Positions 1 to 52,541 of a stretch of 52,541 bases of DNA are shown here, one piece after another. The notes under the pieces are model-generated. The model did not search any database and was not told the DNA's origin. It was given only the letters and a program-made list of their open reading frames with translations. The stretch comes from a virus: positions 1-52,541 of IMG/VR virus record IMGVR_UViG_3300029258_002096, one strand, 5' to 3'. The translations under genes were made by a program, and so were the position numbers. Position 1 is the stretch's first letter, and each line of letters starts with the position of its first letter.

Positions 1-214
1 GATGCCAGAACTTCGTGGAATTGCTGATAAACTATCAAAAATGTTTAATGCACCTGATTATCCAAAACAAGGTGGGCCAGTAGAGGCTATAAAATTATTA
101 AATAGAGCACTTGATATTTTGGGGGAAGGCAGTTGCCGGTGAACCTATTAATAACCGGTGAGGTACACAAGATCAAAAATAACAATAGTGTGTAATATGC
201 TAAAAAGGTGATTT

Positions 215-481
215 GTGGGCACAAAATTTGATAAAATCATGAAAGTCAGGATTAATGGGGATGACAAGAGACTTTTCCGTGAAGCTTCAATTCATATTTA
301 TGGTGATGAAAGTTTGAGTAGATTTATCAGAGATGCTGGATTTGCGTTTATTGAACTAAAAAATGGTTTTGTTGAGCGAGAATTAGATAAAGAATATTTC
401 CCAACAGGGAGACGATATTTGAGGTTTATTAAGCCATACAAAAAAGGGAAAAGACGGAGACATTGGGAAGGGCAAACATAA
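215..481 (+). CDS. small ribbon-helix-helix/CopG-like DNA-binding protein
   Basis: N-terminal KVRINGDDKRLFREAS...LSRFIRDA has an RHH-like pattern; stop overlaps the next ATG (TAATG at 479-483). Confidence 0.45.
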   Translation: MGTKFDKIMKVRINGDDKRLFREASIHIYGDESLSRFIRDAGFAFIELKNGFVERELDKEYFPTGRRYLRFIKPYKKGKRRRHWEGQT

Positions 482-4609: not shown

Positions 4610-5882
4610 GATAGTCATTCCTGGTTATACAAATCCCAAAACTGGAAAGAGACACGAAGAACAAAAGCGATTCGTTGAAAGTGCCACTAAAAGGAAAATC
4701 GTCAAAGCTGGAAGGCGTGGTGGCAAAACTATTGGGTGTGGGAAAATAGCATTACATGGGTTTAGAGATGGAAAGAGGGTATTATATGGAGCTCCTACAG
4801 TAGAACAGGTAGGGGCTTTTTGGCATTTCATTAATACGGTTTTAGAGCCTGTTATATCAGAGAAGATATTATTCAGGGACAAGAATTTACATATTATTGA
4901 AGTGCCAAATACGGATATTAGGATAAAGGCTAAAACGGCTTGGAATGCAGATACACTAAGGGGTGACTGGGCGGATATACTCATTCTTGACGAATTTCAA
5001 TTAATGAATGAAGACGCCTGGGAGATTGTTGGTGCTCCGATGCTTTTAGATAACAATGGTGATGCTGTTTTTATTTTTACCCCCCCAAGTTTTAGGATGA
5101 GGGGGGTTACTAAAGCCTTTGATCCCCGCCACGCTTCTAAAATGTTCAAAAAAGCACAGAAGGATACATCTGGTCGCTGGGAAGCATTTCATTTCACGAG
5201 TTACGCAAATCCATTTATTGACGAACGGGCCCTTGACGAAATTGCTATAGATATGACCCAACTTGCCTATAAGCAAGAAATCTTAGCCGAAGACATTGAT
5301 GACGTTCCCGGAGCCCTGTGGACACAAGCAATCATTGATAATACAAGAGTCAGTGAAGCACCAAGAATGAAAAGAATCGTTGTAGGTGTCGATCCCCAAG
5401 GAAAAAAGAAAGATTCATCGGAAACGGGTATTATTGTTGCTGGACTTGGGTATGATAATCATGGATACGTTTTGGCGGATTATTCTATTAATGCGAGACC
5501 GGAGGGGTGGGCTGAAAGCGTTACGCAAGCTTTTGAGGAAAACGAAGCAGACAGAGTTATCGCAGAAAAGAACTATGGTGGTGATATGGTCAAGAGTGTG
5601 ATTCAGTCAGCGGGGCCTAATTTACCCGTTAGATTGATAACAGCATCACGGGGCAAGACAATACGGGCCGAACCCATATCATTCCAATATGAAGAGGGAA
5701 ACGTACACCATGTTGGCATATTCCCAAAATTGGAAGATGAAATGTGTACCTATACACCCGGCAGCGGCTGGAGTCCCAATAGGATGGATGCCCTTGTTTG
5801 GGCGTTAAAGGAATTGTTACCCATAAAAGGCAGGGTATCTTCTTCTCCTGTCAAACTTGGTGAACCAAGACCCATAGATTAA
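4593..5882 (+). CDS. terL: terminase large subunit
   Basis: Walker A AGRRGGKT, Walker B ILILDE, nuclease VGVDP and NRMDALVW. Confidence 0.95.
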   Translation: METIHRIVIPGYTNPKTGKRHEEQKRFVESATKRKIVKAGRRGGKTIGCGKIALHGFRDGKRVLYGAPTVEQVGAFWHFINTVLEPVISEKILFRDKNLHIIEVPNTDIRIKAKTAWNADTLRGDWADILILDEFQLMNEDAWEIVGAPMLLDNNGDAVFIFTPPSFRMRGVTKAFDPRHASKMFKKAQKDTSGRWEAFHFTSYANPFIDERALDEIAIDMTQLAYKQEILAEDIDDVPGALWTQAIIDNTRVSEAPRMKRIVVGVDPQGKKKDSSETGIIVAGLGYDNHGYVLADYSINARPEGWAESVTQAFEENEADRVIAEKNYGGDMVKSVIQSAGPNLPVRLITASRGKTIRAEPISFQYEEGNVHHVGIFPKLEDEMCTYTPGSGWSPNRMDALVWALKELLPIKGRVSSSPVKLGEPRPID

Positions 5883-41030: not shown

Positions 41031-41623
41031 AAAAGCAGATTGAACTAAGGAATCGCTTTACTAACGAAATTATAGTAGCTGGTAAATATGCGGATATCAG
41101 GTGGGCTGTTGAGGAAAACAGGGCTGATCTCATGGGAGCCAACCTCCGGGGAGCCAACCTCCAGGAAGCCAACCTCCGGGGAGCCAACCTCCAGGGAGCC
41201 AACCTCCAGGGAGCCAACCTCCAGGGAGCCGACCTCCGGGGAGCCAACCTCCAGGGAGCCGACCTCCGGGGAGCCAACCTCCAGGGAGCCAACCTCTGGG
41301 GAGCCGACCTCCGGGGAGCCAACCTCTGGGGAGCCAACCTCCGGGGAGCCAACCTCCAGGGAGCCAACCTCCGGGAAGCCGACCTCCAGGGAGCCGACCT
41401 CCGGGGAGCCGATCTTGATTTTTCTTGCTGGCCCCTATGGTGTGGGTCGTTCGGTGTTATTGTTGACATAGACAAAATTTATCAACTTGCCTTACATATA
41501 TGCAAGTGTAGGGTTGAGGGAAGTAAAGAAGATAAAGAGGAGTTTGCCAAGATCAAAGATTTCCTCCGCCCTTATGCGAACAAGTTTCATCGAATTGGAC
41601 AAGATGTTAAAGGTGTAGAATGA
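41027..41623 (+). CDS. pentapeptide repeat protein
   Basis: about 20 A[N/D]L[R/Q/W][G/E] repeats followed by [10 protein letters not shown]. Confidence 0.95.
41136..41415 (+). repeat. 15-bp tandem repeat (GGAGCC[A/G]ACCTC[C/T][A/G]G)
   Basis: DNA-level repeat underlying the pentapeptides. Confidence 0.9.
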
Positions 41624-42282: not shown

Positions 42283-42400
42283 CAATTAACCCAACGAAGG
42301 GGGTTTAATGATCCAGAAAGTAAAAATAGGAAGCGACTTTTCGGGCGTCCCGTGCCTTGACCCCCTTCATGTTTTCCATGCGGGGCGTCCGAATATTTTT

Positions 42401-42488
42401 GAGGGAGTGGCGGAAAGGGTTAGACGCAACCCGACGGGGCGTGTATCGGGGCCACGATACAGTGCAGGTTCGAATCCTGCCTCCCTCT
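42401..42488 (+). tRNA. type II tRNA-like RNA (Leu/Ser-like body) lacking a canonical anticodon arm
   Basis: Acceptor GAGGGAG/CTCCCTC; D arm GGCGGAA...GG..AGACGC; variable arm GTATCG/CGATAC; T arm GCAGG-TTCGAAT-CCTGC; anticodon region only about 14 nt; no encoded CCA. Confidence 0.7.
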
Positions 42489-42622
42489 CTATGGAGCGGG
42501 AAAATATCACAGTTTCGGGGTTGTTGGCAGCAGAGATGCTGTCCCGCTCCTACTTCCCCCCCAAGGCGGGCACGGCTGGTATACTCGTGGATGCTGGCCG
42601 TGCCATATTTTAAGAGGCAAAA

Positions 42623-48761: not shown

Positions 48762-48936
48762 TTTTACAAAATACGAAACTGGATTAAAGGATGATCTTAT
48801 TAGGTTGCAAATTCCGTTACGCACAATAGAAGTTCTTATGGTTGTGTTTAAATCGATATATAAGCAGGGGGTGATAGATGGGATGGAGGAAAGCATAAAA
48901 AAATTTAGAGAACCAATCACAGAAGATAGAAGTTAA
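48754..48936 (+). CDS. hypothetical protein
   Basis: GGAGGAG RBS; ATG 48754. Confidence 0.55.
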   Translation: MDNFTKYETGLKDDLIRLQIPLRTIEVLMVVFKSIYKQGVIDGMEESIKKFREPITEDRS

Positions 48937-49415
48937 TGCCAAAACGTCAAACAGATACTGAAATATTAGACCAAGCTTGGTTTCAGGATATGTCATTGTC
49001 GTCAAAGGCTATTTGGTGGTTTTTGGAAAAGCGGGTGGATGTGGCCGGAATATGGAAATTAGATATAATCCAAATGAGACGTATTCTCAAATGTAAAATA
49101 AACATCGAACGCTTTTTAAGGGAAGTGAATAAAGACTACGACAAAATAACGGGTGAAAAAATAGATAAAAAAAGAGTCATACTTATAAACGGTGGCGCAA
49201 AAATATGGGTCGTAAACTTTCTCGCCTTCCAATGGGGAAACAGTAATAGCGTCGTCGATTTAAGATACGGTGCCGTGCGATCTGGCTTAAAAAAAATACA
49301 CGAACACGGTCTTCTGTCAATGGCATTAAAGGAAGGGTTTCTAAGGGTTCGGAAGGGTTCGGAAGGGGTAGAAGAAGAAAAAGAAATAGAAAAAGAAATA
49401 AAAAGACTTATCTAA
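48936..49415 (+). CDS. putative replication initiator/organiser N-terminal-type protein
   Basis: KR..DT....WF..S...K..W.FL...D.AGIW pattern; acidic/basic tail. Confidence 0.6.
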   Translation: MPKRQTDTEILDQAWFQDMSLSSKAIWWFLEKRVDVAGIWKLDIIQMRRILKCKINIERFLREVNKDYDKITGEKIDKKRVILINGGAKIWVVNFLAFQWGNSNSVVDLRYGAVRSGLKKIHEHGLLSMALKEGFLRVRKGSEGVEEEKEIEKEIKRLI

Positions 49416-49530
49416 TATCTCTTATTATATATTTTAAATTATTGTAGATATTAGATGAGCTAAAGCTCAGGAGAAAAATAATGGATAAAAAAGATGGTTG
49501 GTTGATAACCATTAAAACAACTGCGAATAA

Positions 49531-49600
49531 ATATAACGCCGGGATCACCGGCAGGAAGGAGCGGAGCGCATGACTGTCCGTGTGAATCCCGATGTTATAT
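49531..49600 (+). other. attC-like site (70 bp)
   Basis: ATATAAC; GGGATCACCGGCAG vs CTG[T]CCGTGTG[A]ATCCC; GCGGAGCGC centre; GTTATAT. Confidence 0.8.
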
Positions 49601-49992
49601 GTCCCGCGTGCGGTTGGCATGGTCCGCTGACACAAACCGACAATGGGGTCTGTCCACGGTGTGAATATGAGGTAAACGGCGGCGAGCCCTACAGGCTGAT
49701 GACGCTAGCCGAACTTCGCGAGTCAGAACATGGGGCCACATGGTGTGATGTAGACATGCGCGAGTTTCTGCGCGCGGTGGCTGAGGTAGAAGCAGATAAC
49801 GTCAAGCGTCAGGTAGCCGTCTCGCGTCGGCAGACCAACAGCGCTCGTGAACGCGGCCCTTCATGTTGTAGCCCTCCATCCGCTTGTTCGGCATGCCCTA
49901 CGTGTGGCCGCAGCAAGCCGGATTGGGCGGAGTATTGCTCTGAGGAATGTCGCTATGAGGACGAAACGGGGCATCCTGGTTGTGAATACTGA
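49570..49992 (+). CDS. Cys-rich ORF reading through two attC-like sites
   Basis: ATG inside attC 49531-49600; CPACG, CPRC and CPTCG modules. Confidence 0.55.
   Translation: MTVRVNPDVICPACGWHGPLTQTDNGVCPRCEYEVNGGEPYRLMTLAELRESEHGATWCDVDMREFLRAVAEVEADNVKRQVAVSRRQTNSARERGPSCCSPPSACSACPTCGRSKPDWAEYCSEECRYEDETGHPGCEY
49794..49892 (+). other. degenerate attC-like site
   Basis: AGATAACGTCAAGCGTCAGG...GCCCTCCATCCGCTTGTTCGGC; left part parallels 50384-50402. Confidence 0.55.
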
Positions 49993-50022
49993 GCGTCAAC
50001 TATTCGAGAATCTCGAACAGTT

Positions 50023-50080
50023 GCCGAACGGTTAGTTTCAGCGGTGCGCTTTTTGCATCCGCTGCAAACTTTTGTTATAC
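50023..50080 (+). other. attC-like site (58 bp)
   Basis: AGTTTCAGCGGTGC 50034-50047 pairs 14/14 with GCA[T]CCGCTG[C]AAACT 50055-50070; GCCGAAC/GTTATAC ends. Confidence 0.9.
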
Positions 50081-50107
50081 GGCGAACTTAACTAACAGGA
50101 GAAAACA

Positions 50108-50389
50108 ATGGAAAACAATAATCACTTAACACTTAAATGGGGCACACTGAAATCATGGAACTTTAAAGGCAATGAAGAAGCGTGCAAATTATTAAAACGT
50201 TACGGGGAAATCGGTTCATCATTCTCAGCGATGGCGCAAAATGATACGCCAGAACAAAAGGAAATAATTTGCAAGTTAATAGATTTGACACCAGGAGAAA
50301 TATATCTTGATTGGGACGGTGAATACGTTTCAAAAGAAAAAGCAAAAGAATATGTAATGAATTACGGCAAAGAAAAACAAGCCGTATAA
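50108..50389 (+). CDS. cassette-encoded hypothetical protein
   Basis: AGGAG RBS; stop inside GTATAAC. Confidence 0.8.
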   Translation: MENNNHLTLKWGTLKSWNFKGNEEACKLLKRYGEIGSSFSAMAQNDTPEQKEIICKLIDLTPGEIYLDWDGEYVSKEKAKEYVMNYGKEKQAV

Positions 50390-50440
50390 CGTCAAGGGTC
50401 AGGCGCGGCTTTAGCCGTCGCCTGAATCCGCTGGTTCGGC
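50384..50440 (+). other. attC-like site (57 bp)
   Basis: GGGTCAGGCGCGGCT vs AGCCG[T]CGCCTG[A]ATCC; GTATAAC/GTTCGGC ends. Confidence 0.85.
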
Positions 50441-50469
50441 TCCGGTTGGACTGGTGGAGGAGAGGACCA

Positions 50470-50976
50470 ATGAATCCAAAAGAAACACAACGCCGAGAAG
50501 AGATTGGTAAGATCGTTGCCAGCCTTGAACGGTTTGGGAAAATAGGCTGGTGGCAATTTGCGGCCTATCAACAGAAGAAATGGAGATTTGAACTTATATT
50601 ATATGTTATTGATATACTTTACGAAACAGAAAACTTAAGGAGGCGTATCCAGCATTTAGTTGAACAAAAAGAAATGGGCCAACTATACGGGGCGCTGACT
50701 TATTTTATTGATAAATATGCCGGAGAATATTCGGAGACACAGGGTCAAGAACAAAAGCAAGCCGCAAAGGAATGGGCCGACAAAATAGATATACCCATCG
50801 GCCAAAATCTTAAGTCAGACGATCAAATCCGGCTTGAAGGAGAACTTAAAAAACGCCAGCAGAGAGCGGATCAATATTTGCAGGACGGGGACATACATGG
50901 ATACAAAGACCTAAAGCGACAAATAAATAAAATAGAAATCCAGTTGAAGCGAATGGAAAAGCTTCAAAAATTTTAA
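50470..50976 (+). CDS. helical hypothetical protein
   Basis: GAGG RBS; ATG 50470. Confidence 0.6.
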   Translation: MNPKETQRREEIGKIVASLERFGKIGWWQFAAYQQKKWRFELILYVIDILYETENLRRRIQHLVEQKEMGQLYGALTYFIDKYAGEYSETQGQEQKQAAKEWADKIDIPIGQNLKSDDQIRLEGELKKRQQRADQYLQDGDIHGYKDLKRQINKIEIQLKRMEKLQKF

Positions 50977-51011
50977 GGAGGTACTGTTATACGTTTTCTT
51001 AGGAGGACTGA

Positions 51012-51616: not shown

Positions 51617-51812
51617 AGTGGATGTGCCTGGGGAAAGTGCGGGACTTCAAGACGGGGTGGTGGCTATTGAAAAGAAATTACTTGATACAATTTACGCACA
51701 GATAAAAGGTGTTATTGATAATATGGAACTGCATCCAAAACAGTGTGGATATAAGTGCGCCCTATATGATACTTTTGAAAAATTGAAATTAATTTATGGG
51801 GTGGAGTCTTGA
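51456..51812 (+). CDS. fusion protein spanning an attC right arm
   Basis: GPRSADGSP segment encoded by the arm. Confidence 0.6.
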   Translation: MMDRNQVIEILAELRETADYLPTDQKYLDALEHAQNLLEEGGAEQGPRSADGSPVDVPGESAGLQDGVVAIEKKLLDTIYAQIKGVIDNMELHPKQCGYKCALYDTFEKLKLIYGVES

Positions 51813-51816
51813 AGTT

Positions 51817-52046
51817 GGTGAACGTTTAGGTTCATGTGCCAAATGGAGGACAAAATGAAGAAAAGGAAAATTTGGAATCGTTGTATTTATTGCGGCAGGT
51901 TTATTGGATTGGGTGAGTTTATGAGGGGTGAGGTAGAAACTGATTTTACACCAGACACTCACTTTACATACGAAAAAATTGAACATTATCACAAAAAATG
52001 TAAAGAAGAATGTGGGGATTTGGTCACGTGCTAACTTTGGTTATGC
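51817..52046 (+). other. expanded attC-like site enclosing a whole ORF
   Basis: GGTGAAC; GGTTCATGTGCC vs GG[T]CACGTG[C]TAAC; GTTATGC 52040-52046. Confidence 0.6.
51855..52034 (+). CDS. small Cys/His protein inside an attC loop
   Basis: GGAGG RBS; RCIYCGRFI...HKKC. Confidence 0.65.
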   Translation: MKKRKIWNRCIYCGRFIGLGEFMRGEVETDFTPDTHFTYEKIEHYHKKCKEECGDLVTC

Positions 52047-52049
52047 TTA

Positions 52050-52382
52050 GTGAATACCGGCCACAAGCCGGTGCTTATGAATGGCCAAAGGGCCAGAGGA
52101 GCGAAGATGAACGATAGATTAGACTGGCAACACAAGGGTGGGGTGCTTGACATACCAGATAGACATTTTGTCTATAATGTAAACTTTGATGCTGATGAAC
52201 CTTACATAACAATTGTTGATGCAGAAGATCCTCACACTGAAGAAAAAAAGATGTTAGTACCGAAGTCACTCGCATACTATTTAAGCACGCATGCTTGTGG
52301 ATCACGGAAAATGATGGAGAATTTTATAGAGCAAGGACGGCATGAGGTGCGGGTGGGGTTTCAAAGGCTATTGGGATTATAG
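52050..52382 (+). CDS. hypothetical protein (probable cassette gene)
   Basis: follows GTTATGC core; followed by truncated attC-like CACTAAC...ATAACCGGCAAAAAC...GTTTTTG[T]CC 52395-52437. Confidence 0.6.
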   Translation: MNTGHKPVLMNGQRARGAKMNDRLDWQHKGGVLDIPDRHFVYNVNFDADEPYITIVDAEDPHTEEKKMLVPKSLAYYLSTHACGSRKMMENFIEQGRHEVRVGFQRLLGL

Positions 52383-52457
52383 GCCCTTTGGCAACACTAA
52401 CATGAATAATAACCGGCAAAAACAAGCGTTTTTGTCCAAACATAAAGGAGATGAGCA

Positions 52458-52541
52458 ATGAAAAGTAAGGCCGCAAAGTTAGCGTTTTTGTCCGTGTTCG
52501 TTATTGGGTTATTCGGCATTACGGGGTGTGGCGAAAAGAAC
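52458..52541 (+). CDS. lipoprotein, truncated by window end
   Basis: MKSKAAKLAFLSVFVIGLFGITGC lipobox. Confidence 0.6.
   Translation, partial: MKSKAAKLAFLSVFVIGLFGITGCGEKN

Follow-up and report, generated by a model that had tools for sequence, protein, structure and literature searches.

Integrons are bacterial gene-capture platforms. In T4-type phages, small accessory genes in plastic regions are flanked by short conserved stem-loops, forming promoter-early stem-loop (PeSL) cassettes that have been linked to gene shuffling; the PeSLs, which carry a promoter, are arranged as direct repeats and work via homologous recombination. In the dif modules of Acinetobacter plasmids, small gene modules are bounded by XerC/XerD sites, each a 28-bp duplex with an 11-6-11 layout; these sites are inverted, and the enzyme acts in trans. 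CALINs, groups of at least 2 neighbouring attC sites without IntI, have been published in phages, with 17 found in 10,705 phage genomes, and are recombined by IntI1 (Qi et al. 2023, PMC9892861). On the bottom strand of an attC site, the AAC on the 5' arm is the place of strand exchange, and the extrahelical bases lie on the opposite arm; such sites are 57-141 nt long and have a conserved T, spacers of 5-6 nt, and a distance of 6 bp from the first extrahelical base to the last (PMC5027507).

The segment described here probably belongs to an orphan array of integron-type cassettes within a phage genome (Table 1). The window, meaning the whole 52,541-nt stretch of DNA that was analysed, corresponds to G000:C10:4936-57387, where C10 is a 57-kb contig of a 2.38-Mb MAG. 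The final 89 bases of the window (52453-52541) are absent from C10 and from every other contig of the assembly, and therefore the source record extends beyond C10. The genes of C10 all lie on one strand. They include those for a Com-like zinc ribbon, an exonuclease, NinG/Rap and a Mom-like protein, as well as for a terminase and for capsid and tail proteins, and together they mark the contig as a phage or prophage fragment. Its GC content is 42% for the phage overall, and 59% across 49600-49999. A blastn search of 49400-51000 against 50,697 phage records gave no match, nor did a search of the window against Rfam at the gathering threshold. The flanking genes at 48936-49415 and 50470-50976 had no relatives in IMG/VR, and the array region had none among 73 genomes of the MAG's family.

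Table 1. Hairpin sites, units and the fused reading frame of the array, in window coordinates.
Feature	Position	Strand	Composition
Site S4	49531-49600 (70 nt)	+	AAC box 49531-49537; body 49537-49593; GTT box 49594-49600
Unit Ka	49537-49799	+	S4 body and domain A; ends at AAC 49798-49800
140-aa ORF	49570-49992	+	Leader MTVRVNP from the S4 loop, zinc-ribbon domain A, linker, Cys-rich domain B; 59% GC
Remnant	49800-49851	+	Weak resemblance to the S3 left arm; translated as the linker
Unit Kc	49852-50028	+	Degenerate site (GTT box 49886-49893), domain B, stop codon, end box 50022-50029
Site S2	50023-50083 (58 nt as 50023-50080)	+	AAC box 50023-50029; body 50030-50073; GTT box 50074-50083
Unit K2	50029-50389	+	S2 body, GTT box, 5'UTR with RBS, 93-aa gene 50108-50389, end box
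Site S3	50381-50443 (57 nt as 50384-50440)	+	AAC box 50381-50390; body 50391-50433; GTT box 50434-50443
Unit K3 (start)	50390-50976	+	S3 body, leader with RBS 50456-50462, 168-aa gene 50470-50976

The original prediction, made from the sequence of the window, described three short attC-like sites of 70, 58 and 57 nt and a fourth, degenerate one, and all are present. S4, S2 and S3 are imperfect hairpins closed by AAC and GTT, within the length range of attC sites, and their folds are better than those of shuffled sequences: as single-stranded DNA, S4 folds at -15.6 kcal/mol (z = -3.9) and S2 at -11.9 kcal/mol (z = -2.8), and S3 folds at -14.1 kcal/mol (z = -3.6). The degenerate site, from the AAC at 49850-49852 to the GTT box at 49886, has a stem of only 4 bp. 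The 14 pairs with T and C bulges that had been described for 50023-50080 were likewise found, with one G-T pair in addition to the 14 Watson-Crick pairs; S2 consists of a 7-nt box, a 5-nt spacer, a 15-bp stem, a 4-nt spacer and the second box, and both of its bulges lie on the + strand's 3' arm, separated by 6 bp. When S2 is joined to the end box of its own unit, the fold reaches -22.1 kcal/mol (z = -8.9). S4 has three 1-nt bulges (A, T and T) on the 3' arm, with a spacing of 3+3 and spacers of 1 and 2 nt, and in S3, where the spacers are 7 and 8 nt, a T on the 3' arm is the one clear bulge. The + strand of S2 largely fits the published description of attC, except in its box-proximal bulged base, which is C rather than the usual G, and is A in S4. 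The boxes also depart from the RYYYAAC/GTTRRRY consensus, as had been remarked of GTTRRRY: neither the AAC boxes at 49531, 50023 and 50384 nor the GTT boxes at 49594, 50074 and 50434 follow it, the AAC and GTT triplets being all that stays constant.

In S2, S4 and S3 alike, the bulges of the + strand are on the arm opposite the AAC, as expected of an attC bottom strand. This geometry makes the coding strand the bottom-type strand, in agreement with unit borders that fall at AAC. A classical integron cassette has its gene on the top strand, followed by the attC site, whereas in the window the hairpin is upstream of a gene on the recombinogenic-type strand. Furthermore, the RBS and even the start codon can be within the hairpin, as the loop of S4 holds both an RBS (49553-49561) and an ATG (49570). 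It is very improbable that these structures act as ordinary intrinsic terminators or arose by chance as palindromes in between phage genes, for all that they are intergenic and have GC-rich stems. The hairpins are not followed by a T tract, and no terminator was called on the + strand between 49300 and 51100; they move with the downstream gene, and one contains a start codon; and the enrichment of modules across the contig argues against chance palindromes.

These modules were counted as a GTT start with a reverse-complement end, across the whole 57-kb contig, with 200 dinucleotide shuffles providing the expectation. There were 13 at a match length of 10 bp, against 0.87 +/- 0.92 expected (and a maximum of 4 in any shuffle). 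At 9 bp the count was 19, with 3.6 expected, and at 8 bp it was 45, with 14 expected. In the Polaribacter phage P12002L there was no overall enrichment of modules. Box pairing extends over 8-17 bp across the modules examined, and the box sequence varies between modules yet always matches within a module, meaning the two ends covary. The module at 50074-50390 exemplifies this: its first and last 10 nt are perfect reverse complements of each other, its 93-aa gene has its own RBS (AGGAG at 50097-50101, 6 nt before the ATG at 50108), and the TAA stop codon at 50387-50389 is within the end box, all as originally reported. Other units are less regular. The start and end boxes of Ka match at only 7/8 positions; the Kc boxes pair over 8 bp, such that the match between 49886 and 50029 alone may be chance, although a comparator contig supports it; and no reverse complement of the K3 GTT box was found downstream. 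The first ~13 nt of the remnant at 49800-49851 match 50390-50402 at all but one position.

On the coding (+) strand, a unit starts with the C of an AAC triplet and extends through the AA of the following one, and the hairpin belongs to the gene downstream; the exchange point in S4 would correspondingly fall at 49536|49537. The original prediction had drawn a cassette at 50074-50440, but the borders are AAC triplets rather than G|TT on the + strand, and the unit is K2. The hairpin at 50030-50073 likewise goes with the 93-aa gene that follows rather than with the upstream gene. Including the hairpin is also difficult to reconcile with small transposable elements, of the MITE-like or MPME-like type, as it lies outside the left repeat of the mobile unit. 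Terminal inverted repeats of 8-17 bp on each module are a feature of such elements, yet a transposase needs constant ends, and these repeats vary between units, with neither a target duplication nor a nearby transposase; hence a transposable origin is scarcely credible.

Five separate comparisons, involving K2, Kc, a 395-bp duplication, the S4 body and an S2-type body, found homology bounded by AAC. Firstly, K2 is present in the JGI contigs L175, L176 and L177, with identity running from the AAC at 50027-50029 to the AAC at 50388-50390. These copies share 77/78 positions of the non-coding part and 247/282 of the ORF with the window; the sequences before the unit are unrelated in every context, and those after it in L175-L177 differ from that of the window. 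Secondly, positions 49886-50029 of Kc are identical to the ENA contig L183 at 140/144 positions, with the match ending on the AAC at 50029 and the outer flanks unrelated. Thirdly, C10 contains a perfect direct duplication of 395 bp (C10:1510-1904 and 4685-5079, corresponding to -3425..-3031 and -250..144 relative to the window), which extends from AAC to AAC behind two different upstream modules, with a 123-aa ORF inside. Fourthly, 6 other contexts contain the S4 hairpin body (49537-49589) at about 94-97% identity, with both flanks unrelated; in five of these it starts at AAC and stops a few bases before GTT, and the modules adjoining the copies again have start and end matches of 8-10 bp. Fifthly, the S2-type body at the start of the contig is identical in the IMG/VR contig L186, where it is accompanied by a different 13-bp box pair.

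These alignments therefore show the units to be discrete and, as far as sequence comparison can tell, mobile between phage-like contigs. They bear out the earlier suggestion that attC-like sites bound mobile single-gene units, as well as that of recent acquisition, with at least two units recently exchanged on the basis of their near-identity to other contigs (77/78 non-coding positions and 140/144, respectively). The contigs carrying related units range from 35% to 63% GC. The relatives found were all in contigs recognisable as phage-like through DnaB, methyltransferases, RadC or viral classification, and 18 of the 25 metagenome matches to a single 21-mer were chance matches in coding sequence. 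Contigs from four metagenome runs in Logan also branch inside the sites. One alternative context begins exactly at 49537, and others branch at 50413-50446, with a different gene after the same leader past 50466; these runs may include the source sample, and therefore the branches are treated as supporting evidence only. No circle or empty-site junction was seen, which counts against a cassette array.

Other observations were made on the same contigs. The 395-bp repeat has the appearance of a duplicated cassette, with its GTT box in the middle of the ORF. Beside the K2 copy, a cassette at L175:3341-4122 and L176:697-1478 encodes a 240-aa N6/N4 DNA methyltransferase, with boxes that match over 17 bp. 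The Logan contigs of all four runs join 51660 to 51794 and 51825 to 52398, skipping 133 and 572 nt, which suggests variants that lack these stretches; the joints were dropped as evidence of cassette movement, as their sides are 30 nt and they do not fall cleanly on AAC.

The conservation of the hairpins could alternatively reflect a role as RBS-presenting 5'UTR leaders, with the genes being shuffled by homologous recombination in the same manner as the promoter-stem-loop elements of T4-type phages. The bodies and leaders, in which the RBS and start codon are located, show 94-100% identity from one context to another, and the gene products of the phage include an exonuclease, a possible annealing protein and NinG/Rap. 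Nevertheless, this is an unlikely account of the locus. Conserved leaders do not explain box pairs that are specific to each unit yet match within it, nor homology that stops on the same triplet on both sides, and there is no promoter consensus. Unlike PeSLs, each unit of the window has its own covarying inverted boxes, and its borders are on one triplet. Homologous recombination at conserved leaders could still add to the shuffling of units. The dif modules are also distinguished from the array, in which the sites are hairpins of 57-70 nt.

The consequences of this organisation for coding sequences are most evident in the 140-aa ORF. For residues about 7-75, the match is confined to the C-terminal half of protein P0122; the homologous gene, in L182, ends at an AAC that aligns with 49798-49800, and is identical to Ka at 147/205 nt. 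The last ~43 residues match P0123 (BLASTP: 96% identity over 20% of the query). Additionally, the ATG in the S4 loop opens five different proteins (66-207 residues) in other contigs, all of which begin MTVRV. The partial matches to P0122 and P0123, together with the loop ATG, therefore indicate that the ORF reads through three units, in support of a separate earlier note on this frame; its sequence identifies it as an in-frame fusion of units. The 93-aa protein of K2 belongs to a family of >900 metagenomic proteins without a Pfam domain, and most homologues of its gene are in ordinary, tightly packed phage early regions without hairpins. Phages appear to exchange and even fuse small genes through such units.

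There is much in common between these units and the cassettes of integrons and phage CALINs. The sites are imperfect AAC/GTT hairpins of 57-70 nt, with spacers and one-sided bulges that include a T; the borders are inside AAC, and the start of a unit is complementary to its own end; and the cargo is one small gene per unit, with DNA methyltransferases among those of related arrays, carried by a phage without an integrase. The differences, beyond the position of the hairpin relative to the gene and its translation signals, are that box pairing extends over 8-17 bp rather than 7, that the bulge is C or A rather than G, that the boxes are off consensus and that units are fused in frame. There is also no IntI beside the array, unlike in a complete integron. 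The serial sites without an integrase have the layout of a CALIN, but they were judged by their features rather than by the standard model, and their polarity relative to the genes is reversed.

One source of such an array would be the host chromosome, with classical cassettes captured from a bacterial integron and moved by the host's IntI. The attC-like geometry, the ability of IntI1 to recombine phage attC sites (PMC9892861), and the 59% GC of the 140-aa ORF in a phage of 42% GC are each consistent with such a capture. It is nonetheless improbable, as the genes occupy the bottom-type strand and follow their hairpins, and the relatives in bacterial integrons that the original prediction anticipated were not found, every relative being in a phage-like contig. 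Nor was there evidence of the integron integrase it invoked, on C10, in the MAG or in the 115 genomes of the MAG's order. The best match to TIGR02249 in the MAG, on other contigs, scored 87 bits relative to the 265-bit cut-off, and none of the 115 genomes contained a match above this threshold. A scan of bacterial genome contigs for similar sites returned only chance matches in GC-rich genes, the pattern being too loose to be informative on bacterial integrons.

No recombinase of any known family was identified among the 105 ORFs of C10, and there was no match to PF00589 on this contig. The recombinases of the MAG comprise three Xer-type genes only, and a search of the MAG for dif-like sites (CATAA/TATAA-N6-TTATG/TTATA, with complementary arms) gave 5 weak matches, none convincing. 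A 78%-identical homologue of the 93-aa gene sits in a GTT...AAC module of a 334-kb IMG/VR jumbo-phage contig, on which a decayed small Xer-like recombinase is likewise found, flanked by modules on either side. Relatives of this recombinase were found at 55 IMG/VR loci; most of their ORFs measure 263-268 aa, and the catalytic motifs are intact. At the 24 loci with both flanks, the 5 kb upstream of the recombinase held 94 modules of at least 10 bp (10.3 expected), and the downstream side held 4 (8.7 expected). The last AAC is 30-53 nt before the recombinase start codon in 15 of 22 loci, with a mode of 51-52 nt, and the few segments shared among the loci start at the AAC box. On the integron-integrase model these proteins score 143-151 bits, below the 265-bit cut-off and in two stretches, indicating that they are without the IntI insertion. 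These arrays are an integron-like platform with a different enzyme.

The relationship of the window to these recombinase-linked arrays rests on a common box grammar and one common gene family. Both have covarying GTT...AAC boxes and co-oriented genes, and a homologue of the 93-aa gene is present in one such array. Yet the sites of the recombinase-linked arrays are 85-125 nt, with longer stems, and the window is without a recombinase. Moreover, their predicted 1-nt bulges are mostly on the 5' arm (9 vs 2), the opposite of the window's sites, and hence the tie between the window array and the small Xer-like enzyme is not secure. No small Xer-like recombinase was found on C10, which may be an incomplete contig, in the MAG or in its order, and the best matches in the MAG were 33%-identical housekeeping Xer genes.

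Two further features were seen near the small recombinase genes. The loci L211 and L221, which are of the same subgroup, have a short A-rich stretch in common between the last AAC and the recombinase start. On the IMG/VR record IMGVR_UViG_3300049436_000052 (L025/L026), a direct repeat of ~45 nt is found at ~206150 and ~212060, with one copy immediately before the gene for the decayed small recombinase and one behind a second set of three modules; this could be the array-proximal site of the recombinase-linked platform. A different candidate, the 333-aa Xer-like recombinase encoded beside K2 in L176 and L177, was rejected, having no IMG/VR relatives and 25% identity to the small recombinase; this protein, and those of L178 and the L186 contig, may be ordinary lysogeny integrases.

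For an orphan array of integron-type cassettes, movement would begin with a tyrosine recombinase of the IntI/Xer kind folding the + strand, which has the geometry of an integron bottom strand. Strands would be exchanged inside the AAC, enabling a unit to leave as a circle and enter another site, with the enzyme, being absent from C10, acting in trans. The best candidate for this role would be the kind of small (about 267 aa) Xer-like recombinase encoded just downstream of arrays with the same grammar. A tentative reading, for which the balance falls slightly short of even, is that the array is a phage-borne counterpart of the integron, run by such a recombinase rather than by IntI, in which upstream hairpins donate the RBS, start codon and first codons, such that accessory genes are shuffled between unrelated phages and fusion proteins like the 140-aa ORF are made. 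The integron-type interpretation has several observations counted against it: those of the sites, namely the off-consensus boxes, the C or A bulge and the gene on the recombinogenic-type strand; those of the units, namely the 7/8 box match of Ka and the lack of an end for K3; and those of the enzyme, namely the absence of a recombinase and the opposite bulge arm in the recombinase-linked arrays. Neither the upstream-hairpin layout of the window nor the Xer-like platform was found in the literature searched.

To the exact base, the comparisons support the movement of hairpin-bounded units among unrelated phage-like contigs of 35-63% GC, with a site upstream of the gene that carries translation signals, and neighbouring units that can be read as one protein. 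This would provide a concrete route for the turnover of small phage accessory genes, probably including counter-defence genes, such as methyltransferases, and for gene birth via cassette fusion, while pointing to a candidate non-IntI recombinase.

Elsewhere in the window, ARAGORN called an 89-nt tRNA-Val (GAC) at 42401-42489, in a GC-rich stretch that overlaps an open frame at 42308-42613; this call had no Rfam match at the gathering threshold. A 15-nt periodic repeat at 41134-41400 encodes a pentapeptide-repeat protein (Pfam PF00805), and the Logan contigs break within it, with many variants and a summed depth that is several-fold higher.
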